Part shown: positions 5,713 through 24,000 of the stretch, piece after piece
How positions within the stretch are numbered: position 1 is the stretch's first letter
Layout of the letters: every line of letters starts with the position of its first letter
Assembly: GCA_965660875.1 (NCBI GenBank)
Contig: CBFIBQ010000004.1
Location: 53,749-77,748, forward strand
Reading direction: 5' to 3'
Source: Salibacteraceae bacterium
GTDB taxonomy: Bacteria; Bacteroidota; Bacteroidia; Flavobacteriales_G; Salibacteraceae
Length of the DNA stretch: 24,000 bases
Position numbers and translations under genes: made by a program
Notes under the pieces: generated by a model
The model's database searches: none
What the model saw: the letters and a program-made list of their open reading frames with translations, nothing else
What the model was told of the DNA's origin: nothing

Positions 5713-6351
5713 TCAATAGTACAAATTACGCTTAGTATCTGCAATAACTTTAATGGGCAACTCTAAATTATCAACCAGCGATTGAAAATAAGTTCTGCGT
5801 TCTTTCGAAAAAACAGCTATTCCATGAATGCAATTGACTGGTACATGATTCCGAATTAAAAACTCTGCTTGTTTGTAATCCTTGCGGTGCAGATGTTCCG
5901 TCGTCGTATTCCACCTTTTACTTTTAATGTAGTTCCACTTGAGTTTATCAAAATCTGACTTTAAGTTAAAAAAGTCTGCAATAGTCAGTTTGGCATTCAT
6001 ATCGGTAAAACAATATTCTAACCCTTCTTGTTCAATAATTTCGAATTTGGAGGCAATGAAAACAATATCGTTTTGAGGCGTTTTTTCCACTCCTCCAAGA
6101 CCATCTTTAATTAGAAAAAGCATAGGAGAATGACCAGCAAAATAAAAAGGAACATACTCTCCCAAATTACCAGCTCCTCGTAACGGTATAGGATGTTCAT
6201 GTCTATCTGAAATTAATTGCTTGTGCCCAATATTTACATAATTTGGATCCGCATTTTCGTGTTCGCGACAACACATACCATGATTGAGAATATGCTCTAC
6301 ATTTTCCCAATGTACCATGCGATACAACCATATGTTATCTGGTACTGCCAT
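5713..6351 (-). CDS. darT: DarT: DUF4433 ssDNA thymidine ADP-ribosyltransferase toxin
   Basis: 212 aa. Motifs seen: LYRMVHWENVEHILNHG, EYVPFYFAGHSPML, YKQAEFLI (catalytic Glu context), IAVFS and a C-terminal LYY. These match the DarT pattern as I remember it. Confidence 0.9.
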   Translation of the reverse strand: MAVPDNIWLYRMVHWENVEHILNHGMCCREHENADPNYVNIGHKQLISDRHEHPIPLRGAGNLGEYVPFYFAGHSPMLFLIKDGLGGVEKTPQNDIVFIASKFEIIEQEGLEYCFTDMNAKLTIADFFNLKSDFDKLKWNYIKSKRWNTTTEHLHRKDYKQAEFLIRNHVPVNCIHGIAVFSKERRTYFQSLVDNLELPIKVIADTKRNLYY

Positions 6352-7484: not shown

Positions 7485-8947
7485 TAGCCCAAGGTTTTAA
7501 ATAACTGATTCATGCTTGATTTTAAGTCACTTGAAGACTCTTCCCAATTGTTGAACACCTCCCCAAAAGGAACCTTATTCTTATCTTTTATCCTTGAAGA
7601 CTTCACATAGTTAGTAACCAATAATGAGGCGTTATTTTTAATAACGTCATCTATATCAACAAGCTTGGCGAAATCCTTAATGTCCTTATAATCTTCGTAG
7701 GCTTTGAATATCTTATCAATGTGATGGTCTAGCAAATACGAAATAGTTTTCTCATCCTTTACTTCCTCATATGCATTAATAAAAAGAATTTTCCCTTTCT
7801 TTTTTTGCTCCTTATTGGTTCTTCTAATAAGCAAGGCTGACTCCATCGAAGAATTGTAGAACAGGTTTTTACCCAAAGCAATTACACAATCTACAGTATC
7901 AGTTTCAACCATTTTCTTGCGCATTTTCTTTTCATTGTCTCTGAAAAGAATACCATGAGGCCAAAGCTGTACACATCGGCCATTGTTACGATCCATACTT
8001 TTATCAATATGCTGTTCAAAAGCATAATCTGCACATCCTTGTGGAGGTACACCCCAAAGGTTTCGTCCATATGGGTCGTTGGTAAATCCTTTTTGGTCCC
8101 ACGCTTTTATGGAGTAAGGAGGGTTGGCCAAAATCACGTTAAACTTTTTGAGTTCGTCGTTTTCCAAAAATGCAGGATTTGCAAGCGTATCGCCTCTTAC
8201 AATGCTAAACTCCTCTATTCCGTGCATAAACATGTTCATGCGGGCAATGGCAGAAGTAATCAGGTTAATTTCTTGTCCGTACAACTTAAGTGTTCGATAT
8301 TCCTTGCCTTCTTCTTTGAGGTGCAAGGCGCAATTGAGCAACAAGCCACCGGAACCACAAGTAGGATCGTAAACCGATTCACCCGGCTGTGGGTCCATAA
8401 TCATGGTCATGAGTTTAACCACCGTTCGGTTGGTATAAAACTCCGCAGCGGTATGGCCGCTGTCGTCGGCAAATTCTTTTATGAGGTACTCGTAAGCATT
8501 TCCCAGTTTGTCATCAGGAATGTTGCTTAAACTGAGTTTGTGCTGCGAGTAATGCTCTATGAGGTTGGTTAAGGTTTCGTCGCTCAATCGGTTTTTGTTG
8601 GTCCAAGAAGAATCACCAAAGATGCCGTATAAGGTGTCGGGATTAGCCTTTTCAATTTCGCGCATGGCATCTTGCAAGGCAATACCAACATTAACAGTGG
8701 TTTCTCTTACATCATTCCAATGAGCTCCTTTGGGCACCAAAAAATGGTGATGTTCCGCAAAGGCGGCGTATTCCATATCGCCATCACTCTCTTCCAACGC
8801 TTTTTCAAATTCTTCATCATACACATCACAAATGCGTTTGAAGAACATCAATGGAAAGATGTACTGTTTGTAATCTCCTGCATCTATGGTTCCACGCAAT
8901 TGGGTAGCAGCACCCCAGAGGTATTTTTCGAGTTGTTGTTGGGTCAT
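7484..8947 (-). CDS. hsdM: Type I R-M N6-adenine DNA methyltransferase (HsdM), copy 1
   Basis: 487 aa. N-terminal HsdM domain (LWGAATQLRGTIDAGDYKQYIFPLMFFKRICDVYDEEF), SAM motif DPTCGSGGLL, catalytic ILANPPYS. Confidence 0.95.
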   Translation of the reverse strand: MTQQQLEKYLWGAATQLRGTIDAGDYKQYIFPLMFFKRICDVYDEEFEKALEESDGDMEYAAFAEHHHFLVPKGAHWNDVRETTVNVGIALQDAMREIEKANPDTLYGIFGDSSWTNKNRLSDETLTNLIEHYSQHKLSLSNIPDDKLGNAYEYLIKEFADDSGHTAAEFYTNRTVVKLMTMIMDPQPGESVYDPTCGSGGLLLNCALHLKEEGKEYRTLKLYGQEINLITSAIARMNMFMHGIEEFSIVRGDTLANPAFLENDELKKFNVILANPPYSIKAWDQKGFTNDPYGRNLWGVPPQGCADYAFEQHIDKSMDRNNGRCVQLWPHGILFRDNEKKMRKKMVETDTVDCVIALGKNLFYNSSMESALLIRRTNKEQKKKGKILFINAYEEVKDEKTISYLLDHHIDKIFKAYEDYKDIKDFAKLVDIDDVIKNNASLLVTNYVKSSRIKDKNKVPFGEVFNNWEESSSDLKSSMNQLFKTLG

Positions 8948-9400: not shown

Positions 9401-10005
9401 CGTTTTACAGCTTTTAAAATTTCGTCGAATGCAGTTTTATTTAAATTATAGCCGTCATCTTTTTTCTCATATAAAACATGTACTTCTATGTTCGGATAGT
9501 CTCCCGCTTTTTTGATGTTTTCTTTCAATAAATCCTGATTAATATTCCAACCGTAAACGATTACCATTTGGTACTTTAGGTCAGCAGAAACAATAATATC
9601 TTGCTGCCAATTCGGCCATTTAATCCAAGCTTTTTTTCCCTTTATTTTTTCAATAAAATTATTTTTATCTCTAAGGTATTCGGCAAAATTCCTATTCCAA
9701 CCCATGTTCGTCTTCAAATCAAAATAATGCGTTAAAACATTATCATCAATAATTGATAAGTCTGGTTTAAAAGATTTGGCTTTTTCATTCTGGTTGAATC
9801 GAATTGACGTTACTTTATCGACATAATAATCTAGGTCTATAGATTTAATGTTTTTAGCTATAAACAAGGCAAATAGATCTTCTACATATCCAGAAATGCC
9901 ATGTGCCATACCTCTCTGTATTTTGTAACCCCCATCTCCTTCAATTAGACGATCAGCTGTAGAACGGTGTGTTTCAAGCTTTCTGAAAAACTCTTCTTTA
10001 GTCAT
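9397..10005 (-). CDS. Small PD-(D/E)xK (restriction-endonuclease-like) protein
   Basis: 202 aa. KPDLSIIDDNVLTHYFDLKTN fits PD-x13-D-x-K, with an upstream acidic residue in YVEDLFALF. It overlaps the upstream gene by 8 nt. Confidence 0.5.
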   Translation of the reverse strand: MTKEEFFRKLETHRSTADRLIEGDGGYKIQRGMAHGISGYVEDLFALFIAKNIKSIDLDYYVDKVTSIRFNQNEKAKSFKPDLSIIDDNVLTHYFDLKTNMGWNRNFAEYLRDKNNFIEKIKGKKAWIKWPNWQQDIIVSADLKYQMVIVYGWNINQDLLKENIKKAGDYPNIEVHVLYEKKDDGYNLNKTAFDEILKAVKR

Positions 10006-11173
10006 CCGTTGTTTTTAAGTATGAATTGTTGCTAGACATTAGACCTATCTGCTGTAACAATTGATCATTTACCGGACGCAAATCTTCATCTAAAAATGTC
10101 ATTAGTTCTTTTGCAAAATTTTGTCCCAATTTGTCAACGTTTGTAAAGTCAATTGTTCCCTTCATTAAGTATAACCATTCCTTTCCAGGCTTACTGTCAA
10201 GCACGTGGAGGTCCAAATGAGAACACCGCTTTTTAAGATCCTCTGCACTACCTCCTTCTTTCCACTTTTTTAGAGATTCACCGTACAACCAGTATTGGTA
10301 ATCGCATTTTTTTTCAGAAAAAACACGCTCAAATTCGACCACTATTGAAATATGTGGGTCGGCATATTTAAGACTCAAACTATATGGGTTTTTCCTATAG
10401 TAGGTATAACCTGGAACGGCATTCAATAACTCCGAAGCTTCAGCAGCTAATTCTGATTCCGCTTTCTTTTTTAATTGGGTAAGTTCATTAATTGTCTTTC
10501 CGTGTTTGAAGCAAAAATCGAGGCTTTCTGTGTGCTTTTCTGAACTCATTCGTTTTAGATTATTGATAAAGTCAAATAAATATGGAAGGTGATCAATCTG
10601 ATTGTCTATTAGATTTTTACCAAGTTCTTTTTTTATTTCATCAATTAACTCTTGGTAGGTAATATTTACAAATTGTCGGTTCTTCACAACCATTGGTTTA
10701 GCGGATAACACAACCCCTACTTTACTGGCAGCTTTGGTTGATTTATAATAATCGGTGAGGTTATTATACAACTCAGCAAATACTTTGTGTTCAACTACCA
10801 ATGCATTATCGTAGGTTTCTTTTTCCAGTTCATCAGAGGTAAGCTGATCGTATAGCAACAAGTCAATAAATCCTTTTTTGTCAGTTTGTTTTTCTTGGAT
10901 AACGTGAATTTCTCCAGTCAACCAACTAAGGTCTACATCAATGCCCTTTTCTTTCGCTTTTAGTGTAATTAGCGAGAATAAAGCATCGCCAAAAATGACT
11001 GACAAGCCATGCGTATTATCCGATTCAAGAAAATAGGCGAACCAATTACTCAATACGGTTTCTCGATGCGGATGTCCAGAAATAGAGAACAAATCATCTC
11101 GTAAAGAATTTGCCTGGGGTAGCTGTTCATTTTCAAGAAGTAACACCTCTTGTTCCAATTGTTCTAGGCTCAT
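9998..11173 (-). CDS. PD-(D/E)xK nuclease superfamily protein (PDDEXK_4-like)
   Basis: 391 aa. HPHRETVLSNWFAYFLESDNTHGLSVIFGDALF is the N-terminal signature I associate with this family. KGFIDLLLYD...ALVVEHKV gives a D...E-x-K core. Its ATG overlaps the hsdM2 stop (ATGA, 11170-11173). Confidence 0.65.
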   Translation of the reverse strand: MSLEQLEQEVLLLENEQLPQANSLRDDLFSISGHPHRETVLSNWFAYFLESDNTHGLSVIFGDALFSLITLKAKEKGIDVDLSWLTGEIHVIQEKQTDKKGFIDLLLYDQLTSDELEKETYDNALVVEHKVFAELYNNLTDYYKSTKAASKVGVVLSAKPMVVKNRQFVNITYQELIDEIKKELGKNLIDNQIDHLPYLFDFINNLKRMSSEKHTESLDFCFKHGKTINELTQLKKKAESELAAEASELLNAVPGYTYYRKNPYSLSLKYADPHISIVVEFERVFSEKKCDYQYWLYGESLKKWKEGGSAEDLKKRCSHLDLHVLDSKPGKEWLYLMKGTIDFTNVDKLGQNFAKELMTFLDEDLRPVNDQLLQQIGLMSSNNSYLKTTDD

Positions 11174-12648
11174 TTAACGAATTTAGATAAGATGGTTTTA
11201 AACTTTTCTTCTGCCTTCAAACTTTCATTCCAAGTCGTTTTTAAATCAGCTAACGCTTCTTCAACAGAAGGCAGATTGTCTTCGATGATCTTCTCAACAT
11301 ACAATGGAATATTCAAATTGTAATCGTTTTCTATCAGGTCTTCCTTAGAAGCTACTTTTACGTAATTCTCCACATCTTCATAAGCCTGCGTCCATTCAAA
11401 TATTTGATTCACATGTTCTGGTTCCAAGTAATTTTGTGCTCTACCTACTCTTACTTGGTCAGAAGCATCAATGAATAGCACTTTACCTTTTTTCGCGGCT
11501 TCCTTTTTCTTTTTGAAAACCATAACACAAGCGGCCAGCTGTGTTCCGTAAAAAATATTGGCTCCTAATCCTATAACTGCTTCAAGCATATCTTGCTCTA
11601 ATAATGCTTGTCGAATTTTTCCTTCAGCTCCTTTCCGAAACAGCGCGCCGTGTGGTAAGACCACGGTCATTCGCCCATCGTCATTCATGGACTTAATCAT
11701 GTGCTGCACCCAAGCCATGTCACCGTTTCCTTTTGGTGGTACTCCTGCAATGTTTCTTCCGTAGGGATCATTGGCCCAATTTTCTGCACCCCATTCTTTA
11801 AGCGAAAATGGAGGATTGGCAATGACACAATCAAAAGTTTTTAATCCGTCAGCTTCAAAAAATGCAGGGTTTCTAAGGGTATCACCTCTATATATTTGAA
11901 AGTCTTCAATGCCATGTAAAAACATGTTCATTCTGGCTATTGAACTAGAAGTCAGGTTCTTCTCTTGTCCATAGAGTTTGAGCGTTCTGTAGTCTTCGTT
12001 GTTCTCTTTGAGATGATTTACAGATTCAAGCAACATTCCGCCCGTTCCACATGCAGGATCGTAAATGGATTCACCCTCATGCGGATCAAGTATCAACCCA
12101 AGCAAATGAACAACAGACCGTGGTGTATAGAATTCGCCTGCTTTTTTATTGGTAAGATCAGCAAAGTGTTTGATCAAATATTCGTACGAGTTTCCAAGTA
12201 AGTCTGAATCTACATTGCTATTACATAAATCGTACTGCGAGAAATGCTCAATTAGATCAATCAGCAGTCGATCGGAGAGTTTGTTTTTATTACTCCATTG
12301 AGCGTCGCCAAATATGCCGTACAAAAACTCTTGATTGGCCTGTTCAATTCCTCTTAACGCTTTTTCAATGGCTAATCCTACATTGGTTGTTGTCTCACGC
12401 ACATCTTTCCAATGGCAGCCTTCTGGTATTTCGAATCGATGAAACTCGGGTAGGTTCGCATAATCTTCGTCCCCATCAGATTCCTCCAATGCATTTCGGT
12501 ATTCTTCATCGTACACATCCGATATCCTTTTGAAAAACAATAAAGGAAAAATGTACACTTTGAAGTCAGAAGCATCTACAGGGCCTTTAAGAATCCAGGC
12601 TGCTTTTGATAAATATTGTTCTAGCTGGGAGAGGGTAATTTTTTCCAT
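11170..12648 (-). CDS. hsdM: HsdM-like N6-adenine DNA methyltransferase, copy 2 (no adjacent hsdS)
   Basis: The track ORF runs to 12837, but HsdM homology starts at MEKITLSQLEQYLSKAAW (ATG at 12648, 1 nt after the upstream gene's stop at 12650-12652). Motifs: FYTPRSVV, DPACGTGGML, VIANPPFS. By-eye alignment suggests roughly half or more of residues are identical to copy 1. Confidence 0.9.
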   Translation of the reverse strand: MEKITLSQLEQYLSKAAWILKGPVDASDFKVYIFPLLFFKRISDVYDEEYRNALEESDGDEDYANLPEFHRFEIPEGCHWKDVRETTTNVGLAIEKALRGIEQANQEFLYGIFGDAQWSNKNKLSDRLLIDLIEHFSQYDLCNSNVDSDLLGNSYEYLIKHFADLTNKKAGEFYTPRSVVHLLGLILDPHEGESIYDPACGTGGMLLESVNHLKENNEDYRTLKLYGQEKNLTSSSIARMNMFLHGIEDFQIYRGDTLRNPAFFEADGLKTFDCVIANPPFSLKEWGAENWANDPYGRNIAGVPPKGNGDMAWVQHMIKSMNDDGRMTVVLPHGALFRKGAEGKIRQALLEQDMLEAVIGLGANIFYGTQLAACVMVFKKKKEAAKKGKVLFIDASDQVRVGRAQNYLEPEHVNQIFEWTQAYEDVENYVKVASKEDLIENDYNLNIPLYVEKIIEDNLPSVEEALADLKTTWNESLKAEEKFKTILSKFVK

Positions 12649-12649
12649 A

Positions 12650-13645
12650 CTATTTTGGGCTAAAAATGGCGCCCGTAATTGTTCTTTTAGAAAGTTGTTT
12701 TCCTTGATTCGATTGCCAAATGCGATTCCGAAAGTAGAAAATTTCCAGCTTCCTTTTTTTGGAGTCCAAAGCATTCGAAACAACACAAATTCTAAAGTGC
12801 TTTCTATTAGCCACTTTTTGACTATTGGCATATTCATTTGGAGTCAATTCAATAGATAAAAATGGACCACTTAATCCTTTTGCTTCTAACAATAATGTTT
12901 GCTTTCCATTTTTTGCCTCCATATCCCAACCAACATTTTCCTTGTGGACATAGTCTATTCTATAACCTCGATTCGTGTAATATTCTTCGACTAAATCCAT
13001 GGCAGCATATTCTACCTTTTTTCTAACTTCTGGATCAGGCTGTCTCGGTCGTCCAATTTTTCCTTTTTTCGGATTTCGTTCTATCCAAAACTTTGGATCT
13101 TTAAAAAAGTTATCCAAGTCGGTCAAAAACTTCTTTCGTTTCGGATAATTGTCTACATACCAGGCATTTGCTTGGCCCGGGCCTTTTTTCATTCTGTCGG
13201 GCATTTCAAAAACCCTGTCTTCAAGTGGAATCAATGTTCCATTTTTTACAAGGCATTCTATATTGTAGAGGGTGTGATCCTTCCTAGCTCCTTTTCTTAA
13301 TGATTGGAGGGACCTGTATAACGTTGCATTTTCATATTTCCCAACAACATATTGTCCACCTGTACTCGGTTCAGTAGCAAAAAGCACCACTGTGACATCT
13401 TTTATTCTGTCGTCGACAACTGTGGCCCCTAATCTCTCAATCCGAATATTATGTCCTTGTTGCATTCGAGAATACGCAAGGTATTTTCCATTATGAGGCA
13501 AGAAATTATAGACCTCTCCGCCATCACTATGCTCATTAACATAACTTCCAGCACCAACAGGATAGTCATCTTTTGTAATGCCCTTATAATTTCTCATCGA
13601 GGCAACTCGTAAAAAAATGATTGGATAAGTTTTCTTTTTACTCAT
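12650..13645 (-). CDS. Two-domain protein: unrecognised N-terminal domain plus C-terminal DUF3883-like PD-(D/E)xK domain
   Basis: 331 aa. The C-terminal part reads VEYAAMDLVEEYYTNRGYRIDYVHKENVGWDMEAKNGKQTLLLEAKGLSGPFLSIELTPNEYANSQKVANRKHFRICVV. This fits the DUF3883 pattern G-(Y/W)-D...E-x-K...LT-x-NE...hhhV. Its ATG overlaps the upstream stop (ATGA, 13642-13645). Confidence 0.6.
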   Translation of the reverse strand: MSKKKTYPIIFLRVASMRNYKGITKDDYPVGAGSYVNEHSDGGEVYNFLPHNGKYLAYSRMQQGHNIRIERLGATVVDDRIKDVTVVLFATEPSTGGQYVVGKYENATLYRSLQSLRKGARKDHTLYNIECLVKNGTLIPLEDRVFEMPDRMKKGPGQANAWYVDNYPKRKKFLTDLDNFFKDPKFWIERNPKKGKIGRPRQPDPEVRKKVEYAAMDLVEEYYTNRGYRIDYVHKENVGWDMEAKNGKQTLLLEAKGLSGPFLSIELTPNEYANSQKVANRKHFRICVVSNALDSKKRKLEIFYFRNRIWQSNQGKQLSKRTITGAIFSPK

Positions 13646-14340
13646 AACATGGTCCTTATTATATCAATTTCTAGGCTCTGGGAATCCTTCGAATTACCGG
13701 CTCTACGCCAAAGATTTGGCCCCCGAAAACTAGGATGAATTAAAAATCCAAATGGAATTAAGTCGCCCTTTAAATCCACTTCAATACTACTTTTTTCTAT
13801 TGTGTTGAATTGACTTGTTTTAGAAAAGCCCTTCCAAGCACTTGTTAACTCTGGAAAAACTGGGCGAACAAACTTTACTACTTCCAAACCCAACAATAAG
13901 ACACCGCGTGGCTGAAGCACTTTAATTTGCTCAATCATAAATTGTTGACAATGCTGGACAAATGCTTTGTCTTTGCGAGCTTCCAATGGGCCGGTGATTT
14001 TTTCAGAAACTCTAACCCCAGGAAAGCAGTTCGAATAAAAACAGGTTTCTGGCTTCACGCCAGCTTCAATTAACAATTTATTGAGGTTGACCCAAGTTGG
14101 GTTTTTGTCCTCTTCGTGTCCTATTTCTTTGATTTTTTCTAGGTATGATTCATGCCCAAAATCTTGCCCTAAAATAAGTATGGGTTTTTTTGGAAATGGT
14201 TTTTCTGGGTCAGAAACACCCGAACAAATTGGAAAGAACCCGAATCCAGGATACATTAATTTGTTTAATTTTTGAGTTTCGGGGAAGGGAAAATCTTGGT
14301 AATACTTAGCATAAAGCCTGAATAGTTTGTTACTTAACAT
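13642..14340 (-). CDS. Uracil-DNA-glycosylase-superfamily (UDG-fold) protein
   Basis: 232 aa. ILILGQDFGH resembles motif A (GQDPYH / GEAPG types). CFYSNCFPGVRV resembles the hyhTN-x-hkCrP segment. HCQQFMIEQIKVLQPRGVLLLGLEV fits C-x2-hh...P+hhhhLG. FLIHPSFRG resembles motif B (HPS). Confidence 0.7.
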   Translation of the reverse strand: MLSNKLFRLYAKYYQDFPFPETQKLNKLMYPGFGFFPICSGVSDPEKPFPKKPILILGQDFGHESYLEKIKEIGHEEDKNPTWVNLNKLLIEAGVKPETCFYSNCFPGVRVSEKITGPLEARKDKAFVQHCQQFMIEQIKVLQPRGVLLLGLEVVKFVRPVFPELTSAWKGFSKTSQFNTIEKSSIEVDLKGDLIPFGFLIHPSFRGPNLWRRAGNSKDSQSLEIDIIRTML

Positions 14341-14395
14341 TTGAGTTTAATTTGATGTACCTACTTCTCCAATTGCCATTGCATTTTATTTCCTT

Positions 14396-15526
14396 TCATT
14401 CTTTATCGTAATGATTTAGTAAATATTCTTCTATTTCAACTTCGTTCAATTTTTGGGAAGATGCCTGTCCTCTAATAAAAAATTCCATATCTATTTCACC
14501 ATACCTTCTATTTTCCAAGTAGATTGGTGTATTTGCTTCTTCTACCACAGCCATGAAAACATGCGTACCTTCAGAAACTTCGAGTGTGACTGTGTTTATT
14601 ACTCCGAGCACCCATTTGGGTAAAAACTGGGTGACCATCGAATCAAACTCCAATTTAAAATTGTCCAATTTACCACCACAGCATAGTTTGATATCAAACT
14701 CCTCAATACCATGTACTTGCTTGTCATCAGATAGCCCTATGATCAATACTCCGCCTTTAGTATTCAAAAATGAGGCGAGCGTCTTGGCGCAATGGTATTT
14801 GGCAGTAATCCCAGGTTTACCAGTCTTGGGGTTGAAAACTAAAAATGGTTTAAACTCCAGTTGACGTCCTTCGCCATTTTCGGTCAATTCGTTAAAGTAA
14901 GCGCGGTTATCTGCAAGCTCTACTTTTCGCTTCCATGCGTTTTCCTTTTCTATTTGAGCATCTTCCTTATTATAATTCTCAGAATCCCATTTATAGTTAA
15001 CTTTTAAAATTTGGTTGACAGAATCTACATAACCCGACGAGACATAATCCTCCCCATAATACTCAATTGTCATCTCACTATGGCTAGTATCAATGTTCAA
15101 ATCTTGGTAGATGTGGTACTCTCTAATTACAAAGTCAAACATGTCATCGGGGTTTACACTTTGCGATAAAATTCCTACATTTCCAATGCCATATACCACA
15201 TTTTCCTTTTCCGCGTGAAAGAGTTCTTCCTTTGCATTATTTATTGTAGCCAACGCTTCATCACTCAATACGAGAGTTATTGAAATGAATGGCCCCAACT
15301 TAACATCAATGAATTCATATTCATTAGTCTCCTCGTTCAATTTTACTCGATTATTATCTTTAAGTCCCTCGATACAGTTATAAAAAAACTCAAAAGCATT
15401 TTCTCTATTTACAAATGGATCTTCTACTTCAAAAGATCTTGAAAATGATTGAATTTCAACATCATCTTTCGAATGAAAAATGGGCAAGTGGAAGTGCACT
15501 CTATAAGTAATTGGAGCTTCAAGCAT
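14396..15526 (-). CDS. Schlafen/AlbA_2-domain protein with an unrecognised ~210-aa N-terminal region
   Basis: 376 aa. The C-terminal half reads ENGEGRQLEFKPFLVFNP...AKTLASFLNTKGGVLIIGLSDDKQVHGI...VFMAVVEEANTPIYL...FFIRGQASSQKLNEVEIEEYL, which fits the AlbA_2 (divergent AAA/Schlafen) pattern. Confidence 0.7.
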   Translation of the reverse strand: MLEAPITYRVHFHLPIFHSKDDVEIQSFSRSFEVEDPFVNRENAFEFFYNCIEGLKDNNRVKLNEETNEYEFIDVKLGPFISITLVLSDEALATINNAKEELFHAEKENVVYGIGNVGILSQSVNPDDMFDFVIREYHIYQDLNIDTSHSEMTIEYYGEDYVSSGYVDSVNQILKVNYKWDSENYNKEDAQIEKENAWKRKVELADNRAYFNELTENGEGRQLEFKPFLVFNPKTGKPGITAKYHCAKTLASFLNTKGGVLIIGLSDDKQVHGIEEFDIKLCCGGKLDNFKLEFDSMVTQFLPKWVLGVINTVTLEVSEGTHVFMAVVEEANTPIYLENRRYGEIDMEFFIRGQASSQKLNEVEIEEYLLNHYDKE

Positions 15527-15571
15527 GGTTCAAATTTAAATTATGTTGCGAACAAAAAGAATAGCAATCGA

Positions 15572-16027
15572 TCATGACTCTAAATTGGATAATAAATACT
15601 GCTTAACCGGTTCCCAATTCCGAAAACTCCCACCACCAAACTGTATCCATTCCCCTTCAAAGTATTCCGCACCGTTATTTGGGCGGTCATCAATAAGATA
15701 ATCGCCCTTATTGAGGTTTTTGTGGTGGGAGAGTATCAATCGTTTCCAGGCTTTATTGCCTAGGTACTTTTTTACCCAAATTACCTTATCCGACCAAGCA
15801 CTTGGGTTTTCCCATGGCGCGGTTGAAAGAATGTAGGTATCGTATTGGGTGGCTAGCTTTTCAAAGGCTTCAATGGCGCCCTTCATGGGTTTCATTAGGC
15901 CAAAAATACCCGGTACTTCGTCCAGGCGGCCTTCGTATTCTTTTTTGGTTTTTTCGTCCAATTGGTCAATTCCCGATTGGAAATCAACCAAGACATTGTC
16001 CATGTCTATGTACAGTGTTTTCTTCAT
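15572..16027 (-). CDS. 5'(3')-deoxyribonucleotidase (HAD superfamily, NT5C-like)
   Basis: 151 aa. LYIDMDNVLVDF is the DxDxV HAD motif I, followed by ILSTAP and YLIDDRPNNG. Confidence 0.8.
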   Translation of the reverse strand: MKKTLYIDMDNVLVDFQSGIDQLDEKTKKEYEGRLDEVPGIFGLMKPMKGAIEAFEKLATQYDTYILSTAPWENPSAWSDKVIWVKKYLGNKAWKRLILSHHKNLNKGDYLIDDRPNNGAEYFEGEWIQFGGGSFRNWEPVKQYLLSNLES

Positions 16028-16930: not shown

Positions 16931-17797
16931 ATGGCTTCACACTTTGGAATATTACGGTCTTACTTTAAATTGGTAAATCGGGCACAAGTTGGGGATTACC
17001 CCAGCAAAAAAAATTTACTCGACTTGTTTGAAGAAAGTCCAATTTCTGCTCGGACCTTGGAGCGCTATTTATTCGAATTGAACGAGGAGTTTGGCATCAA
17101 CATCAAATACAATCGATCCAGAAAAGGATACGAACTGGTAGCGGAAGATGATATTGGGGTAGAGCAATTCTTTAAATTCATGGAGTTTAGTGGCAAGGCC
17201 AACCTCATGCAAGACATTCTGAATACCGGAAAAGAAGGGCTGAAATATCTGGACTTTGAAGAAAAAGGGTTGTTGAAAGGCGTTCACTTTCTATCGCCTT
17301 TATTTCATGCCACCCGAAAACAGCAGGTATGTGCGTTGAGCTATTATAAGTTCGATTCGGAGGAAGTGCACGAGCACGTCTTATATCCCTATTTATTGAA
17401 AGAATATCAAGGGCGTTGGTACATAATCGGCTATTGCGAAGACCAAAAAGATACCCGCACCTTTGCGGTGGACCGTATACGCGAATTGGTCGTTCGAAAA
17501 GATAAATTCCGTAAAAAACCCCTCTTCAAAAAGCTCGAAAACCTCGACCATTGCATCGGGCTAAACTGGTCGAATGAAAAGATCGAACGTATTGTCATCC
17601 GGTTTACGGAATACCAAGCCAAATACCAACGCGCCTTACCCTGGCATTGGAGCCAAAAGGAATTGGAAACAGAACCAACCACGCCTAAGGGCTTTGTTGA
17701 TTTTGAGTTTCGATTGATTATCAATTATGAACTCAAGCAAAAGATCTGGATGTTGGGGAAAGAGGTGGAGGTGTTGGAGCCGGAGGGGTTGAAGTAA
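16931..17797 (+). CDS. HTH-WYL-WCX transcriptional regulator (BrxR/CapW-like)
   Basis: 288 aa. N-terminal HTH (SARTLERYLFELNEEFGINIKYNRSRKGYEL), WYL domain (YPYLLKEYQGRWYIIGYCEDQKDTRTFAVDRIREL) and a C-terminal VEVLEPEGLK. Confidence 0.85.
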   Translation: MASHFGILRSYFKLVNRAQVGDYPSKKNLLDLFEESPISARTLERYLFELNEEFGINIKYNRSRKGYELVAEDDIGVEQFFKFMEFSGKANLMQDILNTGKEGLKYLDFEEKGLLKGVHFLSPLFHATRKQQVCALSYYKFDSEEVHEHVLYPYLLKEYQGRWYIIGYCEDQKDTRTFAVDRIRELVVRKDKFRKKPLFKKLENLDHCIGLNWSNEKIERIVIRFTEYQAKYQRALPWHWSQKELETEPTTPKGFVDFEFRLIINYELKQKIWMLGKEVEVLEPEGLK

Positions 17798-17806
17798 TTT
17801 TTATCC

Positions 17807-17821
17807 CGCCAACTTGTAGCG
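17807..17821. promoter_or_regulatory. Degenerate CGCCA-N5-TAGCG box, copy C
   Basis: tcccgccaacttgtagcg lies between the WYL gene stop and the DUF2779 start. It shares the TCCCGCCAA left flank with copy D. Confidence 0.3.
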
Positions 17822-17856
17822 AACTGTTGTTTTAACCTTGTAATTTAAAGAGAATT

Positions 17857-19326
17857 ATGCTATCAAAATCTACATACGTAAGAGGCCACCAATGTTTAAA
17901 AAGCCTTTGGCTGCATAAAAAGAAACCGGAGTTAAAAGACGATATTTCAGCGCAACAAGAAGCCTTGTTTGCTCAAGGAACTTCGGTCGGTGAATTGTCG
18001 CAACAACTTTTTCCGGGCGGAAAAGATGCTACTCCTGAAGATTATTACCATTGGAAACCTTCCTTCGAAAAAACGAAGCAATGGATTGAAGAAGGTCAGG
18101 AGGTCATCTATGAGGCGGCATTTAATTATGGAAATGTAATGGCGGCCCTCGATATCTTGGTGAAACGCGATGGAGAATGGCATGCCATTGAGGTAAAAAG
18201 CTCTACGTCTGTAAAGGACTATCACCGAATAGATGGCAGCCTGCAATATTGGGTAATGAGTTTAGCTGGCATTAAACCCGATAAGTTCTTTTTGATGCAC
18301 ATCAAAAACCAATATGTGCGGGAAGGTGAGCTAGACATCGAACAGCTTTTTACTTTAGAAGATATTACGGCTGATGTGCTGGCCAGACAACACGAGGTTC
18401 AACCTTATTTAACCGATTGTTTTGATGTACTTAAACAAAAAGCAGAACCGCAAGTGCCTATAGGCGATCAATGTTCCGATCCATTTCCTTGTGATTTTAT
18501 TAGTCACTGCTGGAAACATGTGCCCGACTATTCCGTGTTTAATATTACTCGAATAGGAGGAAAGAGCTGGGATTTATACCACAAAGGTATTTACGAGATA
18601 AATAAAGTACCTGATGATTATCCTTTGAGCGAAAAACAACGCCATCAGGTTGAAGGGGTTAAAACGGGTAAAGAAGTATTTCTAAAAGATGAAATCGAGA
18701 CTTTTCTGAATGAATGGGAATTCCCGCTTTATTTTTTTGACTTTGAAACCATAGGTCCTGCCGTTCCGCTATACGATGACACTCGACCTTATTCCCAATA
18801 TCCTTTTCAATACTCACTTCACGTATTGCAAGCGTCTGGGGAGGTAGAACACTTCGAGTACTTGGGTGATGGAAAAACAGACCCTCGACCTGGTTTGATC
18901 AATCAAATGCTACGTGACCTCGGGACCAAAGGAAGTATTGTAACCTACAATATGGGGTTTGAAAAAGGAAAAATAACGGCTATGGCTGAAAACTTTCCTG
19001 AATATAAGGACTCACTGTTGGACATTAATGAGCGAGTCGTTGACCTCATTATTCCGTTTCGCAAACATTGGTTGTACACTCCGAAAATGAAGGGTTCGGC
19101 TTCCATAAAGTACGTTTTACCTGCCTTGGTACCTAATCTGTCATACAACGATTTGGAAATCAAAGAAGGCGGAACAGCCAGCGCAACTTTCCAGGCAATG
19201 TGCGAAGGAACTTTTACCGGAGATATTGAAGAAACACGCAGGCAACTACTGGACTACTGTAAGTTGGATACTTGGGCGATGGTTGAGATTTATTGGTATG
19301 TGAAAAACAGACTCAAAGCCAACTAA
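17857..19326 (+). CDS. DUF2779-type protein: N-terminal Cas4/RecB-like PD-(D/E)xK nuclease with Cys cluster plus C-terminal DEDD (RNase H-fold) exonuclease
   Basis: 489 aa. LDILVKRDGEWHAIEVKSS gives D...E-x-K, followed by LQYW. Cys residues: HQCLKS plus CSDPFPCDFISHC (four Cys). The C-terminal half has YFFDFETIG (Exo I), TYNMGFEKG (Exo II-like) and LLDYCKLDTWAM (Exo III-like). Confidence 0.8.
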   Translation: MLSKSTYVRGHQCLKSLWLHKKKPELKDDISAQQEALFAQGTSVGELSQQLFPGGKDATPEDYYHWKPSFEKTKQWIEEGQEVIYEAAFNYGNVMAALDILVKRDGEWHAIEVKSSTSVKDYHRIDGSLQYWVMSLAGIKPDKFFLMHIKNQYVREGELDIEQLFTLEDITADVLARQHEVQPYLTDCFDVLKQKAEPQVPIGDQCSDPFPCDFISHCWKHVPDYSVFNITRIGGKSWDLYHKGIYEINKVPDDYPLSEKQRHQVEGVKTGKEVFLKDEIETFLNEWEFPLYFFDFETIGPAVPLYDDTRPYSQYPFQYSLHVLQASGEVEHFEYLGDGKTDPRPGLINQMLRDLGTKGSIVTYNMGFEKGKITAMAENFPEYKDSLLDINERVVDLIIPFRKHWLYTPKMKGSASIKYVLPALVPNLSYNDLEIKEGGTASATFQAMCEGTFTGDIEETRRQLLDYCKLDTWAMVEIYWYVKNRLKAN

Positions 19327-19341
19327 ATCAATACCATAGTG

Positions 19342-19403
19342 GGATAATATATTATCTATATGTGTTAATTTTTTATATATTTGGATAATATATTATCTAT
19401 ATG
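19342..19403 (+). promoter_or_regulatory. hipBA promoter with duplicated palindromic operator
   Basis: ggataatatattatctatatg occurs twice (19342-19362, 19383-19403). Each copy contains the perfect 14-bp palindrome GATAATATATTATC (19343-19356, 19384-19397). TATATTTG at 19376-19383 matches the TAnnTTTG -7 box exactly and lies between the copies. The second copy covers the hipB ATG. Confidence 0.6.
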
Positions 19404-19676
19404 CCTAGTTATTCTCTTTCTAAACAACCGCGTGAAGTGATGTTGGAATTAGCTTCCAAAATACGGACGATTCGCAAAGCCAAAAAATGGAGTCAGGCAG
19501 CACTCGCAGATCGGTCTGGAGTATCCCTCGGTAGTTTAAAACGCTTTGAAACACAAGGCGAAATATCGCTAATATCGCTCCTAAAACTAGCGCATACTTT
19601 GGGTCGATTAGAGGAATTTAATGACCTGTTTCAACCAACCGCGCAAGGTGATTTAAACCAGTTATTCTCTTCTTGA
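19401..19676 (+). CDS. hipB: XRE-family HTH antitoxin (HipB-like)
   Basis: 91 aa. IRTIRKAKKWSQAALADRSGVSLGSLKRFETQGEISL is a Cro/C1-type HTH. The gene ends 1 nt before hipA. Confidence 0.8.
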   Translation: MPSYSLSKQPREVMLELASKIRTIRKAKKWSQAALADRSGVSLGSLKRFETQGEISLISLLKLAHTLGRLEEFNDLFQPTAQGDLNQLFSS

Positions 19677-19677
19677 T

Positions 19678-20904
19678 ATGCGAACAGAACGGATAAACGT
19701 ATTCTTAAATTTTGGTACCGAACATCCCGCGATAGAAATCGGAGAATTGGTGGTTAGTGATCGCTTGATTCATTTTAAGTGTTCGGATGCCTATTTGCAA
19801 AGTCCTTATGAATTATCGCCTTTTAAAATGCCAAAATCGACCGAGATTTATACCGGTGATCCTCGACTTTTTGAAGGGTTGCCCGGATTGTTCTACGATG
19901 CCTTACCCGATACTTGGGGTAGATTAATCACAGACCGAGCCATAAGTGCAAAAGGTACAAATACATCAAGCATAACTGCCTTAGATCGTTTGGCATTGGT
20001 GGGTAAAAACGGTCCAGGAGCTTTGCAATTTCTTCCAGAGCACAGCAGCGAAAAGCCTAAACTCAATATTGATCTTGACGTATTTGCCCATGAAAGCAAT
20101 GAAATCATATCGGGGTCGGATTCGGAGGTTATTGAAGCACTTTTTCATTTAGGTGGTTCGTCAGGCGGAGCACGACCAAAAATTGAACTATTGGTTAACC
20201 CGGCAATTAAAGAACTGAAGTCTCATGGTGTTGCAGAAGGTTTTGAAAATTGGATCATTAAATTTCCTTCTCGATTTGATGAGCCGGACATTGCGCACAT
20301 CGAATACGCCTATTACTTAATGGCTAAAGCAGCGGGTGTATCCATTTCAACTAGTGAGCTATTTACAGGTAAATCTGGGAAAAAGTATTTTGGAACCAAA
20401 CGTTTCGATAGGCAACAAGGCAAACACCTTCATGTGCATTCTGTAGCGGGATTGCTCCATGACGATTACCGTTATTCACAGCTAGACTATGGCCATATAT
20501 TAGATGCGGGTTTTAATTTGACACACAGAGTAAAAACGCATGAAGAAATTCTACGCCTGGCTGCATTTAATCTATATACGCACAACCGAGACGACCACAG
20601 CAAGAATTTTTCATTTTTAATGGACGAAACAGGCGAATGGAGTTTTGCCCCTGCCTATGACCTTACCTTTTCGAGTTCATCGCACGGGCATCACAGCACA
20701 ACTTATGCTGGAGAGGGGCTAAATCCAAATGCCAAGCACCTGTTGGAACTCGTAAAAACCTTTGATATCCGAAACGCTAAAGAGATTATTGAAGAAGTGA
20801 AAACTGCAGCTTGTAATTGGACCCATTTTGCAGAGGAAGCAGAAGTGACCAACGCCTCCAGAAAAAAAATAACCAAAGTGCTGGACGGGTTGATAGTAGG
20901 ATAA
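19678..20904 (+). CDS. hipA: HipA-family serine/threonine kinase toxin
   Basis: 408 aa. N-terminal coupling domain LPGLFYDALPDTWGRLITDR; LGGSSGGARPK; catalytic loop HNRDDHSKNFSFL; AYDLTF. Confidence 0.9.
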   Translation: MRTERINVFLNFGTEHPAIEIGELVVSDRLIHFKCSDAYLQSPYELSPFKMPKSTEIYTGDPRLFEGLPGLFYDALPDTWGRLITDRAISAKGTNTSSITALDRLALVGKNGPGALQFLPEHSSEKPKLNIDLDVFAHESNEIISGSDSEVIEALFHLGGSSGGARPKIELLVNPAIKELKSHGVAEGFENWIIKFPSRFDEPDIAHIEYAYYLMAKAAGVSISTSELFTGKSGKKYFGTKRFDRQQGKHLHVHSVAGLLHDDYRYSQLDYGHILDAGFNLTHRVKTHEEILRLAAFNLYTHNRDDHSKNFSFLMDETGEWSFAPAYDLTFSSSSHGHHSTTYAGEGLNPNAKHLLELVKTFDIRNAKEIIEEVKTAACNWTHFAEEAEVTNASRKKITKVLDGLIVG

Positions 20905-21419: not shown

Positions 21420-22265
21420 TTAAGACTTCATTTTATGGTTTAAAATTAATTCCTCGGCCCATTTATATACATCTGAACTATCGATAACAAAGTCTTGCCC
21501 TATTCCAGTTGATTGAACGAATATTCTTTTTCGGCCTTTTTCATCATTATAAAACATACGCTTTTCTTCGTATTTGGGCATGCGTGAGATTTTTGCATTT
21601 TCAAAGCAATCAGGAAGCGACCAAAGACTTTTCGGAAATCCTCTTCTAGTTAATACTAAATCATCGTGATAATAAAACGTTCCATAGGAACTTTTATTCT
21701 TTGCGGGATAAATCGCATTAAATCTATAGTCTTGTTTTGGTCCGTCAAGTTTGGCGTTTTCGAAATGTGGATGCCCTTCGAATTCGGGGTGATTCAAGAT
21801 TTCTCGACCGAGAATTGGTTTGTCCGATTTTAGGAATCCATAAATGATATGTCTTTCATAGTCCCGCTCGAACCTAATAGTTCCATTAATACTTGTAGTT
21901 CTTCTAAAACTTCCAAAGAACAAAAAAATATCATCCCCGCCCACATCATTATTAACTAAGTGTTTTTGGGCTGCCGAATTTTGCCCAAATGCACCCTTCC
22001 AGTTTGCCTGTCTTTTCTTTAAGATATTTGTTCTGATGTCTGGGTCTAAATGACATTTTTGAGGAATTGATTTAGAATAGAGAGCATCAATAAGTGATTG
22101 ATAGTTGGCTTTATTGTCGTACATCAAACTAGTGTATTTGATCCCTTTGTTTTTTATCTCTGGGATGGGAAGCGAAATCAGCTCTCCATTTGGCATAATT
22201 GGACTGGCGCCACCACCATAGGCGCTATCAAATCCCTTTCTACTTAGAATAACCTTTTTACTCAT
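21420..22265 (-). CDS. Retron-associated 281-aa protein, possibly of the Nmad3 (nucleotide-modification-associated domain 3) family
   Basis: It lies on the same strand as the retron RT, 79 nt downstream. The N-terminus ILSRKGFDSAYGGGASPIMPNGELISLPIP matches my memory of the Nmad3 family start; this is unverified. No ATPase, TOPRIM, HNH, TIR, TM or NDT signatures seen. Confidence 0.35.
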   Translation of the reverse strand: MSKKVILSRKGFDSAYGGGASPIMPNGELISLPIPEIKNKGIKYTSLMYDNKANYQSLIDALYSKSIPQKCHLDPDIRTNILKKRQANWKGAFGQNSAAQKHLVNNDVGGDDIFLFFGSFRRTTSINGTIRFERDYERHIIYGFLKSDKPILGREILNHPEFEGHPHFENAKLDGPKQDYRFNAIYPAKNKSSYGTFYYHDDLVLTRRGFPKSLWSLPDCFENAKISRMPKYEEKRMFYNDEKGRKRIFVQSTGIGQDFVIDSSDVYKWAEELILNHKMKS

Positions 22266-22344
22266 CTTAATCCGTTATAATTTTACTGATCGGTGCTGAA
22301 ATAGCATCTTCTTTCAGAATCATTTTTATTATCTAATACCCATT

Positions 22345-23400
22345 TTAGTCATGTTTCATTGTATTCAGTTCGTTAAACTTTATCCTTAACTTTAAGTACA
22401 CCTCATCTTTCCAACCTCTTACCTGACCTACCCAGTCAATCTTTCCTTTCAAAGAGTTCTTGAAGGTCTGCTTTGTGGATTGATTAAGGCGGAGCCGCAA
22501 GTTTTGGTTTTTACTAAAGTATCTAATTGAAGCCGCATGACAACCCTCACGCTCCCAATTGTGTAAAATAGCCCGTAGGTTGCGAATGTACTTTCGGTCG
22601 ATATTAAACTTTTCATTGACCTTAATTCCTGTTACATATTTTGCTTGATTAGGGCCGAGAAATAAAGTCTTTTCTTGGTTTAATTTTAAATCAAATGCAT
22701 CCAGTTCACCCTGAATAAAATTGGCCACCGCCTTGTGGTGCATTTTTGTTTCGGAGCTGATACTTATATCATCTGCATAGCGCGTGTACGTGCATTTAAA
22801 TTGATCAATTCTTGCCAAAACTCTACGGTCAAATTCATGCATAAATAATTCTGCAACAACAGATGATGTAGGTGCTCCAGTGGGCAGGTTATTATTTTTT
22901 GTGCAAAGTAAAGTGAGTAGATAAGCCACCTCATCATTTACATTCAAGTGGTTCTTGAATAAAGGAATCAAGTGATTCCCTTTTATACTAGCGTAAAAAT
23001 CTTTAATGTCTAATTTCAATAAATATGGTTTACCAATATGCGGATTGGCATTGCTCATAATGGGCGAATAACCTCCTCTTTCGTTTAAAGAAAAGGATGC
23101 CAGTTGAAAAAATGTATCCTCTTTTTTATCTTCCATCCACGACCTATAGTCAATCAGTAACTGATCAGCGAATATCTTCTGGATGCGCGCAAGTCTTGGG
23201 CACGGTACCGAAATCTTTCTCAATCCGCCCCGCTTTTTTGGTATGCTAAAAGTGGAATAGGTATTTCGAATTAGGGTTCGCTTCAAATTAAATTCGCTGG
23301 TATTCAATAAAAAACTAACCCTTGACACATCAAACTTTCGTTTTCCGCCCCATATCAACGAGTCATCGGAGTGAAAAAGAAGAGAAGAAGAACCGTACAT
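22345..23400 (-). CDS. ret: Retron-type reverse transcriptase
   Basis: 351 aa. Motifs: FSIPKKRGGLRKISVP (RT1), RIQKIFADQLL (RT2), SNANPHIG (retron NAxxH-type), LLKLDIKDFYASI (RT3), LPTGAPTSSVVAELF (RT4), YTRYADDISIS (RT5, YADD), LNQEKT (RT6), VTGIKVN (retron VTG motif). Confidence 0.9.
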   Translation of the reverse strand: MYGSSSLLFHSDDSLIWGGKRKFDVSRVSFLLNTSEFNLKRTLIRNTYSTFSIPKKRGGLRKISVPCPRLARIQKIFADQLLIDYRSWMEDKKEDTFFQLASFSLNERGGYSPIMSNANPHIGKPYLLKLDIKDFYASIKGNHLIPLFKNHLNVNDEVAYLLTLLCTKNNNLPTGAPTSSVVAELFMHEFDRRVLARIDQFKCTYTRYADDISISSETKMHHKAVANFIQGELDAFDLKLNQEKTLFLGPNQAKYVTGIKVNEKFNIDRKYIRNLRAILHNWEREGCHAASIRYFSKNQNLRLRLNQSTKQTFKNSLKGKIDWVGQVRGWKDEVYLKLRIKFNELNTMKHD

Positions 23401-23521
23401 CTAAATTTCGTTTTCATTTTCAGATAAAATGACAAACGCGTAAGCGGAATACATCACATTAATGTATTGACTGCAGTTGCACAGCCTTAAATCCTCGCAT
23501 GTCTTTGGGTTACTTCTTCTC
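23382..23521 (-). ncRNA. Candidate retron msr/msd non-coding RNA bounded by a1/a2 inverted repeats
   Basis: On the minus-strand RNA, GAGAAGAAGUAACC (23521-23508) can pair with GGUUCUUCUUCUC (23394-23382): 13 bp with one bulged U. The element spans the whole dnaB-RT spacer and the first RT codons. Internal hairpins: AAUACAU/AUGUAUU (about 23449-23469) and an 11-bp AU-rich stem with one bulge (23410-23437). Confidence 0.4.
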
Positions 23522-23537
23522 AACTTTATTCCTTTTT

Positions 23538-24000
23538 TCAAAATGGTTGTTCGGCATCTTTATCGAGTTTCTTTAACTCGATAACTCGCAATCTTGCTTC
23601 GTACATTTCTCGAAACGAATCAAATTCATTAAACCCTCTTTCAGGTGCATAGTCTCTGGTACTAAATCGAGCTTTTAGAGCTTCAAACTTGAGCTTTATG
23701 GTGTCTGTAACACCATATTTATTTTTTGCTACAATTAGTTCGGCTAATTCCTCCGTCGGATAACCGTCTTCATCCTCCGAAATGCCGTAATATACTGGCC
23801 GATATAAAAACCAAACCATATCAGCATCTTGCTCAATTGAACCACTTTCTCTTAAATCGGATAGTTGGGGTCGTTTTTCCCCTCCTCTGGTTTCAACAGC
23901 CCGACTAAGCTGGCTCGAAATTATAATGGGTACTTCTAATTTTCTACTGAGCACTTTTAATTCTTTCGTGATGTATGAAACTTCTCTTTCACGATGGTGA
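23538..24000 (-). CDS. dnaB: Replicative DNA helicase DnaB, C-terminal part (N-terminal part beyond the right window edge)
   Basis: The frame is open from base 24000: HHREREVSYITKELKVLSRKLEVPIIISSQLSRAVETRGGEKRPQLSDLRESGSIEQDADMVWFLYRPVYY...IVAKNKYG. This is the RecA-like DnaB C-terminal signature. The track start at 23954 is only an internal GTG. Confidence 0.9.
   Translation of the reverse strand, partial: HHREREVSYITKELKVLSRKLEVPIIISSQLSRAVETRGGEKRPQLSDLRESGSIEQDADMVWFLYRPVYYGISEDEDGYPTEELAELIVAKNKYGVTDTIKLKFEALKARFSTRDYAPERGFNEFDSFREMYEARLRVIELKKLDKDAEQPF

Follow-up and report, generated by a model that had tools for sequence, protein, structure and literature searches.

Which gene does the retron-type reverse transcriptase (RT) near one end of this Salibacteraceae DNA work with? 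The DNA is a stretch of 24,000 nucleotides (nt), which we call the window in its entirety (contig CBFIBQ010000004.1, positions 53,749 to 77,748), and coordinates below are window positions unless another locus is named. On the minus strand, the 3′ end of a gene with a DnaB_C domain (stop codon at 23538) is followed after a 137-nt gap by a 351-amino-acid (aa) open reading frame (ORF) that encodes the RT and, after a 79-nt gap, by a 281-aa ORF. A preliminary description of this DNA had proposed the 281-aa protein as the effector of the retron, with a chemistry new to these systems. Our analysis gives a different answer. The functional unit is very probably a two-gene retron cassette made up of a DnaB_C-like ATPase gene, a noncoding RNA (ncRNA), and the RT gene, with the 281-aa protein, a member of the Nmad3 family, encoded separately in a variable slot before a DUF2779-WYL gene pair.

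The reverse transcriptase and its partner gene

The RT gene (22345–23400, minus strand) encodes a protein whose translation carries IPKKRGG, SNANPHIG (the NAxxH motif of region X), LDIKDFYASI, YADD, and VTGIKVN (the VTG motif of region Y). All of the retron hallmarks listed in the preliminary description were seen, including the combination of YxDD, NAxxH, and VTG by which retron RTs are recognized, and the catalytic and retron motifs of the predicted protein are intact. The protein matches Pfam RVT_1 at 2e-22; this is the sole domain in its 351 aa, with no fused effector domain. Retron RT models match at 1e-74, and the best PADLOC matches are to RT-Protease_XI (9.6e-75, 250 bits), RT-Toprim_I-C (9.6e-69, 231 bits), and RT-TIR_XII (4.2e-67, 225 bits). 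Types I-C, XI, and XII are the fused types of RT clade 8, in which type XI has no recognizable ncRNA (Mestre et al., 2020; PMC7736814). In all three PADLOC models, the match is confined to the RT part (positions 9–320 of 506 for RT-Protease_XI), the type I-C and type XII models score within 25 bits of the best match, and the window RT has no protease domain. It also falls under every NCBIfam retron cut-off (186 versus 600 and 176 versus 450). The closest RT homolog, P0122, is 48% identical and lies at a syntenic locus, L081 (L-numbers denote individual relative loci or contigs).

The preliminary description had regarded the 281-aa ORF as the only co-oriented partner of the RT. It had missed the DnaB_C-domain gene, whose 3′ part (~150 codons; 23538–24000, minus strand; Pfam DnaB_C, 1.9e-32) is co-oriented with the RT and runs off the end of the window. 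The full gene is visible in L087, another assembly of the window's own contig, where it occupies positions 421–1521 and encodes 366 aa that match DnaB_C at 5.6e-67.

When the neighbors of all RT relatives were clustered, one family dominated: a DnaB_C-like protein of ~348 aa, whose gene precedes the RT in the same orientation, with a median spacing of 153 nt. Each of the 16 lineages has a co-oriented DnaB_C-like gene immediately before the RT (the window; the P0122 loci; L088, L092, L093, L098, L099, and L107; L168, L169, L171, and L172; L216; and L274, L276, and L279). In a neighbor-joining tree of the RTs, the DnaB_C-linked relatives form one clade, while the window and L081 RTs form a separate long branch. 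All ten members of the main unfused clade for which upstream sequence is available have the DnaB_C-like gene. The association also holds in reverse, as three short DnaB_C-only homologs, chosen from a search with the window's DnaB_C-like protein, are each followed by a 342–367-aa RT after ~170–200 nt. Pairwise distances among the RTs co-vary with those among the DnaB_C-like proteins (Mantel r = 0.74, p = 2e-4, 11 lineages). Co-inheritance of the cassette is seen whether one searches from the RT or from the DnaB_C-like protein, and the two proteins diverge in step. Judged by this linkage, the conserved partner of the RT is the upstream DnaB_C-like protein, which lies outside the 13 classical effector classes; none of the 13 described retron types has Nmad or DnaB (Mestre et al., 2020; PMC7736814).

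One of these cassettes, with its own terminal repeats, is on a 43.8-kb IMG/VR contig classified as viral (L216:3661–5648), indicating that the cassette can be carried by a phage or prophage.

The DnaB_C-like protein aligns to residues 144–438 of the 444 residues of DnaB in PDB 2q6t, which correspond to the linker helix and the RecA-like domain. Against TIGR00665, the model for replicative DnaB, the window protein scores 245 bits over model positions 126–432, and the DnaB_C-like proteins as a group score 245–298 bits from positions ~102–126 to 435, all below the cut-off of 385. The DnaB N-terminal domain (PF00772) was not found in these proteins. They do keep Walker A (GxRPxMGKT/S), Walker B (hhhDYLQ), and the SQLSRxxE and LSDLRESGxIEQxAD motifs. 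As the closest database relatives are full-length (~500 aa) replicative DnaB proteins of Bacteroidota, with 40–46% identity, and the N-terminal domain is missing, the DnaB_C-like protein appears to derive by N-terminal truncation from a replicative helicase of the host type. Ten of 11 aligned DnaB_C-like proteins end in a Pro-Phe dipeptide, which was noted in L087:421–1521 and in the homologs from L081, L088, L092, L093, L099, L107, L168, and L169. This dipeptide is a possible docking tail of the truncated helicase copy.

A structured RNA between the two genes

The spacer between the DnaB_C-like and RT genes is 131–199 nt long across lineages and has the same RNA anatomy throughout. In the window, the predicted ncRNA (msr-msd) comprises 140 nt on the minus strand (23382–23521), of which the last 19 nt are shared with the start of the RT ORF. 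Its minimum free energy fold pairs both ends of the RNA (z = −2.1). The preliminary description had placed a candidate msr/msd directly upstream of the RT, and this prediction held: the 5′ repeat, a1, starts at 23521, the 3′ repeat, a2, ends at 23382, and the same architecture occurs in 12 further lineages, giving 13 across which it covaries.

The outermost helix, P1, is formed by a1 and a2 and spans 8–14 base pairs (bp). In the window, a1 (GAGAAGAAGUAACC, 23508–23521) pairs with a2 (GGUUCUUCUUCUC, 23382–23394, inside RT codons 3–7) through 9 bp, a 1-nt bulge, and 4 bp. The sequences of P1 vary by lineage (GAGCCGUUG, GAGAAGAAG, CCGCCCUUGC, GGGAAGAAUCGUUA, CCGGAGGAUGA, AACCACUGUCC, and others). 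Within its own lineage, a1 forms a mean of 9.5 contiguous pairs with a2, compared to 2.1 for cross-lineage combinations.

Inward of P1, an internal loop leads to a second helix, P2, of 4–5 bp, which takes the forms UUAU/AUAA, ACAU/AUGU, CCAU/AUGG (the variant in the L216 cassette), and UCAU/AUGA (L274). The 5′ arm reads NNAU followed by G in 13 of 13 lineages, and the partner arm changes to match. In the window, the 5′ arm is ACAU (23502–23499) and the 3′ arm is AUGU (23397–23400). The invariant G that follows the 5′ arm, at 23498, is a candidate branching guanosine. Next comes hairpin P3, which in the window is GGCUG-UGCAACUG-CAGUC (23469–23486) and in the 13 lineages has the form GGYUG or GAUUG...CARYC, in which C-G is exchanged for U-A and G-C for A-U. 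P3 is followed by a hairpin region that is long and variable, presumably the msd, and then by an AGAU motif that leads into the P2 3′ arm.

To count covarying pairs, we used a 37-column core alignment of the 13 lineages (A6), whose segments were picked by eye with the structure in mind. This alignment was used because full-length MAFFT alignments (A3, A4, and A5) failed to keep the inner helix and some of the a1/a2 arms in register; these were not used for pair counts. In the core alignment, 97.5% of the cells form standard pairs, compared to 71% after shuffling and 34–53% when partners were slid. Compensatory, two-sided changes occur in 12 of 17 pairs, and the covariation score (0.738 versus 0.204) was equaled in none of 500 shuffles. 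RNAalifold, run as a control on an unsupervised MAFFT alignment of ten sequences that excludes the window (A5), recovered P1, with six compensatory pairs, and P3. A search for duplexes between the spacer ends over-extended the helices and was dropped. Across the window, no Rfam family reached its gathering score; in the intergenic region, Rfam gave just a chance match.

The RNA adjoins the RT gene and has both features looked for in a retron ncRNA, a1/a2 inverted repeats and a conserved G at the base of a stem. As the RT carries the retron motifs and the adjacent a1/a2-flanked RNA covaries across relatives, we conclude from these predicted features that the two constitute a genuine retron.

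Measured in 12 lineages, the distance from the stop codon of the DnaB_C-like gene to the start of a1 is −2 to 30 nt; in the window it is 16 nt. As this leaves little room for a separate promoter before a1, the ncRNA is probably co-transcribed with the DnaB_C-like gene. A scan for sigma-70 promoters was uninformative for the promoter type presumed here, that of Bacteroidota.

The window and L081 share a further peculiarity at the other end of the RNA. In both (window 23382–23400; L081:6001–6019), the RT start codon, ATG at 23400–23398 in the window, lies inside the P2 3′ arm and a2 lies over codons 3–7, such that a folded ncRNA would block the site where RT translation begins. In the other lineages, the RT start codon lies 3–21 nt beyond the end of a2.

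Could the DnaB_C-like gene and the RT be a replication or maintenance module of a mobile element, and not an immune system at all? The DnaB_C-like protein retains all helicase motifs, its nearest relative is replicative DnaB, one cassette is on the predicted viral contig L216, and a "replication-related function" has been raised for DnaB_C proteins in retrons of this kind (Toro, bioRxiv May 2026; doi 10.64898/2026.05.14.725207). Nevertheless, we consider this reading unlikely. The RT carries two motifs specific to retrons (NAxxH and VTG) and is accompanied by an msr/msd-like RNA with a1 and a2, the flanking genes are defense genes and not integrases, replication genes, or conjugation genes, and the cassette diverges much faster than its flanks, as defense genes do.

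The variable slot and Nmad3

The genes beyond the RT differ even between the window and its closest relative. In L087, the order is DnaB_C-like (366 aa), RT, Nmad3, a 151-aa ORF, HipA, HipB, DUF2779, and WYL. The syntenic locus of P0122, L081, has DnaB_C-like (348 aa), RT, a variable segment, DUF2779, and WYL, and in place of Nmad3 and HipBA its variable segment holds a convergent 268-aa ORF, Fic, and a gene with a UVR domain. Between the two loci, the WYL proteins are 82% identical and the DUF2779 proteins 76% (window 16931–19326 versus L081:9541–11944), compared to 48% for the RTs. The conserved flanks, diverged RT, and swapped segment indicate that a fast-diverging cassette and exchanged cargo are bracketed by anchors. 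From this arrangement, the region looks like a defense-island hotspot with WYL and the DUF2779 Cas4-like nuclease as its conserved anchors. WYL and DUF2779 were also considered as components of the retron and rejected, as their conservation with L081 is that of flanks and they are absent near most other cassettes.

Within the window's own variable segment, HipB (19401–19676) and HipA (19678–20904) are followed by an ORF of 151–190 aa (20817/20934–21389). This ORF, which matches no family, converges on Nmad3, leaving 30 nt between the two.

The gene after the RT is different in every lineage. It encodes Nmad3 in the window, and elsewhere the convergent 268-aa ORF, YhcG, an M81 peptidase, GH25, PIN, Exo_endo_phos, or one of several proteins of unknown family, with no mutual homology except between close relatives. 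One explanation is that the DnaB_C-like protein, ncRNA, and RT form a constant sensor and that the next gene is an exchangeable effector slot, filled by Nmad3 here and by the YhcG nuclease, PIN, Exo_endo_phos, or GH25 elsewhere. Modularity is a known feature of retrons (Mestre et al., 2020; PMC7736814), and several of the downstream genes, co-oriented with the RT, encode enzymes that could be toxic. However, none of the downstream families reappears from lineage to lineage, the distance from the RT varies between 9 and 445 nt, and some neighbors are convergent with the RT. Moreover, some have no role in defense (the MlrC/M81 peptidase) or belong to self-contained modules (PIN, YhcG/PDC-S02). 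This pattern is the one expected from ordinary turnover of a defense island, making a swappable effector quite improbable.

The 281-aa protein itself (21420–22265, minus strand, 79 nt downstream of the RT as the preliminary description had stated) is a full-length member of the Nmad3 family. It matches PF18754 at 1.1e-56 over profile positions 1–247 of 247 (192.7 bits versus a cut-off of 27), bearing out the resemblance that had been noted from its N terminus. The residues R9, K10, D13, H72, D74, D76, Q95, H139, H165, and H167, which are the invariant polar positions of the Nmad3 alignment, are all present in the window protein. The view that it differs from known effector classes also stands, as no PADLOC or NCBIfam model and no known retron effector model matches it, and "Nmad" is found neither in Mestre et al. 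(2020) nor in the text or supplement of Toro (2026). Of the profile and structure searches that the preliminary description had suggested, the first identified the family and the second found no related fold. Although the AlphaFold (AF2) model is confident (pLDDT 90, pTM 0.90), Foldseek gave no match in PDB or BFVD (best E ~0.1, TM ~0.1), and a profile search against PDB sequences gave none either. We found no functional work in the literature on Nmad3 or Nmad2; the DefensePredictor paper names an "NMAD" domain among its predicted, unvalidated defense domains.

Nmad3 is a widespread family, with 2,765 clusters at E ≤ 1e-3 in bacteria and archaea. Its commonest neighbor is Nmad2 (PF18753): in 20 of 80 loci, an Nmad2 gene directly precedes Nmad3 on the same strand, separated from it by a median of 9 nt. 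The window Nmad3 differs in having no Nmad2 partner. The nearest relatives of the window protein (45–49% identity) likewise stand alone in unrelated contexts, beside type IX-secreted giant adhesins, YfbU, PDDEXK_4, malate dehydrogenase, or a transposase. Across loci L001–L080, Nmad3 recurs beside restriction systems, McrBC, and other defense candidates.

We examined linkage between Nmad3 and the RT from both sides. On the RT side, Nmad3 is present in none of 165 loci, which comprise 80 metagenome loci, 80 viral-contig loci, and five individually looked-up lineages. On the Nmad3 side, no RT adjoins Nmad3 in ~100 loci (80 genome loci with 6-kb flanks, 16 viral-contig loci, and look-ups of the three closest homologs). 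An RT-like ORF lies within 6 kb of Nmad3 in only two of the 80 genome loci, L054 and L059, and is adjacent in neither. Both were rejected as cases of linkage: in L054 the RT is that of a type VI retron and a PDC-S49 gene lies between it and Nmad3, and in L059 a clade-8-like RT heads an operon of HisKin-conflict, iREC, and receiver-domain genes, with McrBC next to Nmad3. Thus, there is no conserved linkage in either search direction of the kind expected of a retron accessory gene, and the syntenic L081 locus has the cassette without Nmad3. The preliminary description had asked whether homologous RTs are always followed by the 281-aa protein and had named a lack of conserved linkage as evidence against its own proposal; on that count the proposal of a retron effector with a new chemistry falls.

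These data make it very unlikely that Nmad3 is the effector of this retron, with phage infection releasing a chemistry that modifies nucleotides or bases. In favor of the idea, Nmad3 is on the same strand as the RT with no minus-strand terminator predicted in the gap between them, the RT has no effector domain of its own, the invariant polar residues look enzymatic, no catalogued effector family was matched, and the whole window is a defense island. Against it stand the linkage counts from both sides, the complete systems of other kinds that intervene at L054 and L059, and the unrelated genes found after the RT in every lineage. A recent, lineage-specific capture of Nmad3 as a co-transcribed extra effector is similarly very improbable, although, if true, it would give the first case of a retron that uses an enzyme of the Nmad type, presumably acting on nucleotides or bases.

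As the window is a dense defense island, Nmad3 is most simply explained as one more independent gene of that island. Most likely it is a mobile, stand-alone neighbor unrelated to the retron. Since the new effector chemistry fails the linkage test, effort on Nmad3 as a retron effector is not warranted. The family deserves study by itself, as it is widespread, confidently folded, without a structural relative, and found in defense islands.

By its predicted gene content, the remainder of the window is dense in defense genes: two type I methylase genes and a specificity subunit, DarT with a macro-domain partner, PDDEXK_4, an AbiEii-like gene, NOV_C, a UDG-like gene, SLFN_AlbA_2, NT5C, WYL, DUF2779, and HipBA. 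On the minus strand between 4663 and 8947, a macro-domain DarG-like gene (4663–5712) and DarT (5713–6351) lie directly downstream of HsdS (6354–7484) and a type I HsdM (7484–8947), and the ends of these genes abut or overlap. A second minus-strand group (9998–16027) consists of PDDEXK_4 (9998–11173), a second HsdM-like methylase (11170–12837), NOV_C (12650–13645), the UDG-like gene (13642–14340), SLFN_AlbA_2 (14396–15526), and an NT5C deoxynucleotidase (15572–16027). The presence of UDG-like and NT5C genes together hints at a nucleotide-directed system.

Relation to known retrons

By RT sequence, the closest models are those of the canonical clade 8 retrons, namely type XI (RT-trypsin-like protease), type I-C (RT-TOPRIM; Ec67/Eco2), and type XII (RT-TIR). 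In all three, the effector is fused to the RT C terminus, while the 351-aa window RT has RVT_1 only. We also encountered other arrangements of such RTs. In L059:29–4318, and also in L100, L109, L118, L127, L132, L140, and L165, clade-8-like RTs show a different accessory architecture for RTs resembling type XI: co-oriented genes for a HisKin-conflict kinase, an iREC-domain protein, and receiver-domain proteins come after the RT, and a WYL gene often precedes it. In L094:1958–4147, a separate gene for a 248-aa trypsin-like peptidase precedes an unfused type XI-like RT, which looks like a split version of the canonical RT-protease fusion.

The best match to the cassette as a whole is a group described in a survey of SPIRE genomes, which reported protease-less type XI-like retrons with DnaB_C accessories (Toro, bioRxiv May 2026; doi 10.64898/2026.05.14.725207). 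One of its groups, TXI_noncan_h, comprises 29 loci from Bacillota and Bacteroidota, 20 of which have a DnaB_C protein, and its RNA is compact, lies upstream of the RT, and has a1/a2 repeats and 13 covarying pairs. The window cassette resembles this group in its unfused RT that scores best on type XI models (with types I-C and XII within 25 bits), its immediate neighbor with only a DnaB_C domain, and its compact a1/a2 ncRNA just upstream of the RT; the relatives of the window RT also appear to be Bacteroidota. A stand-alone DnaB_C protein within two genes of the RT, taken here as a mark of the group, is found in the window and in 15 related lineages. The two differ in that the DnaB_C-like gene is upstream in the direction of transcription in all 16 of our lineages, and in that the ncRNA of the window and L081 overlaps the RT start codon. 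Toro reports DnaB_C at "+1" in 14 of 20 loci, but since these offsets follow genome coordinates and not strand, a mostly downstream position there does not conflict with the uniformly upstream position here. The supplement of that work also calls aquatic Bacteroidota RTs with DnaB_C neighbors "type I-C3, low confidence," and the window lineage may have been binned under that label. On these resemblances, the window cassette would belong with Toro's protease-less type XI-like DnaB_C retrons, as TXI_noncan_h or a close relative and possibly as a divergent sub-branch. A paper on a Wolbachia plasmid that names a DnaB-like protein and a retron proved irrelevant.

Several points weigh against the two-gene cassette or its placement. 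The core alignment was built by eye around the proposed structure, so its pair counts are biased toward that structure. In our crude tree, the window and L081 RTs lie outside the main DnaB_C-linked clade. Nmad3, given its orientation and spacing and the lack of a predicted terminator, may be co-transcribed with the RT in the window genome. The likeness to TXI_noncan_h is one of description and not of RT sequences or a covariance model, and all members of the DnaB_C-type retron class are known from sequence alone. Even with these reservations, the reciprocal linkage, the co-divergence of the two proteins, and the covarying RNA lead us to favor the cassette of DnaB_C-like ATPase, ncRNA, and RT.

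How might such a cassette work? The anatomy and the general retron paradigm suggest the following speculative scheme. The transcript of the DnaB_C-like gene would include the ncRNA. The RT would prime on the invariant G after P2 and copy the msd part into multicopy single-stranded DNA (msDNA). The RT-msDNA complex would bind the DnaB_C-like protein. In the mechanism that we prefer, the DnaB_C-like protein would act as a mimic of the replisome. It could be a decoy, recognized by the loaders or inhibitors of host DnaB that phages encode. Alternatively, a helicase without its collar might poison replication once released, arresting both phage and host DNA synthesis.

As an example of a retron class known only from one computational preprint of 2026, the locus is both clean and compact. 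To that account, our analysis adds a strand-aware architecture (DnaB_C-like gene, ncRNA, RT), a reciprocal linkage test with co-divergence of both proteins, and a model of the RNA at the level of base pairs with a candidate branching G. It also adds a view of the accessory protein as an N-terminally truncated relative of a host-type replicative helicase, which leads to the testable idea of a retron that mimics or guards the replisome.

Among better-known retrons, the nearest analogy may be to one of the guard type. Retron Ec48 reportedly monitors RecBCD, and the cassette described here could likewise couple a retron to a core DNA-transaction machine that phages attack. The difference is that here the partner itself appears to be a truncated copy of the replicative helicase.

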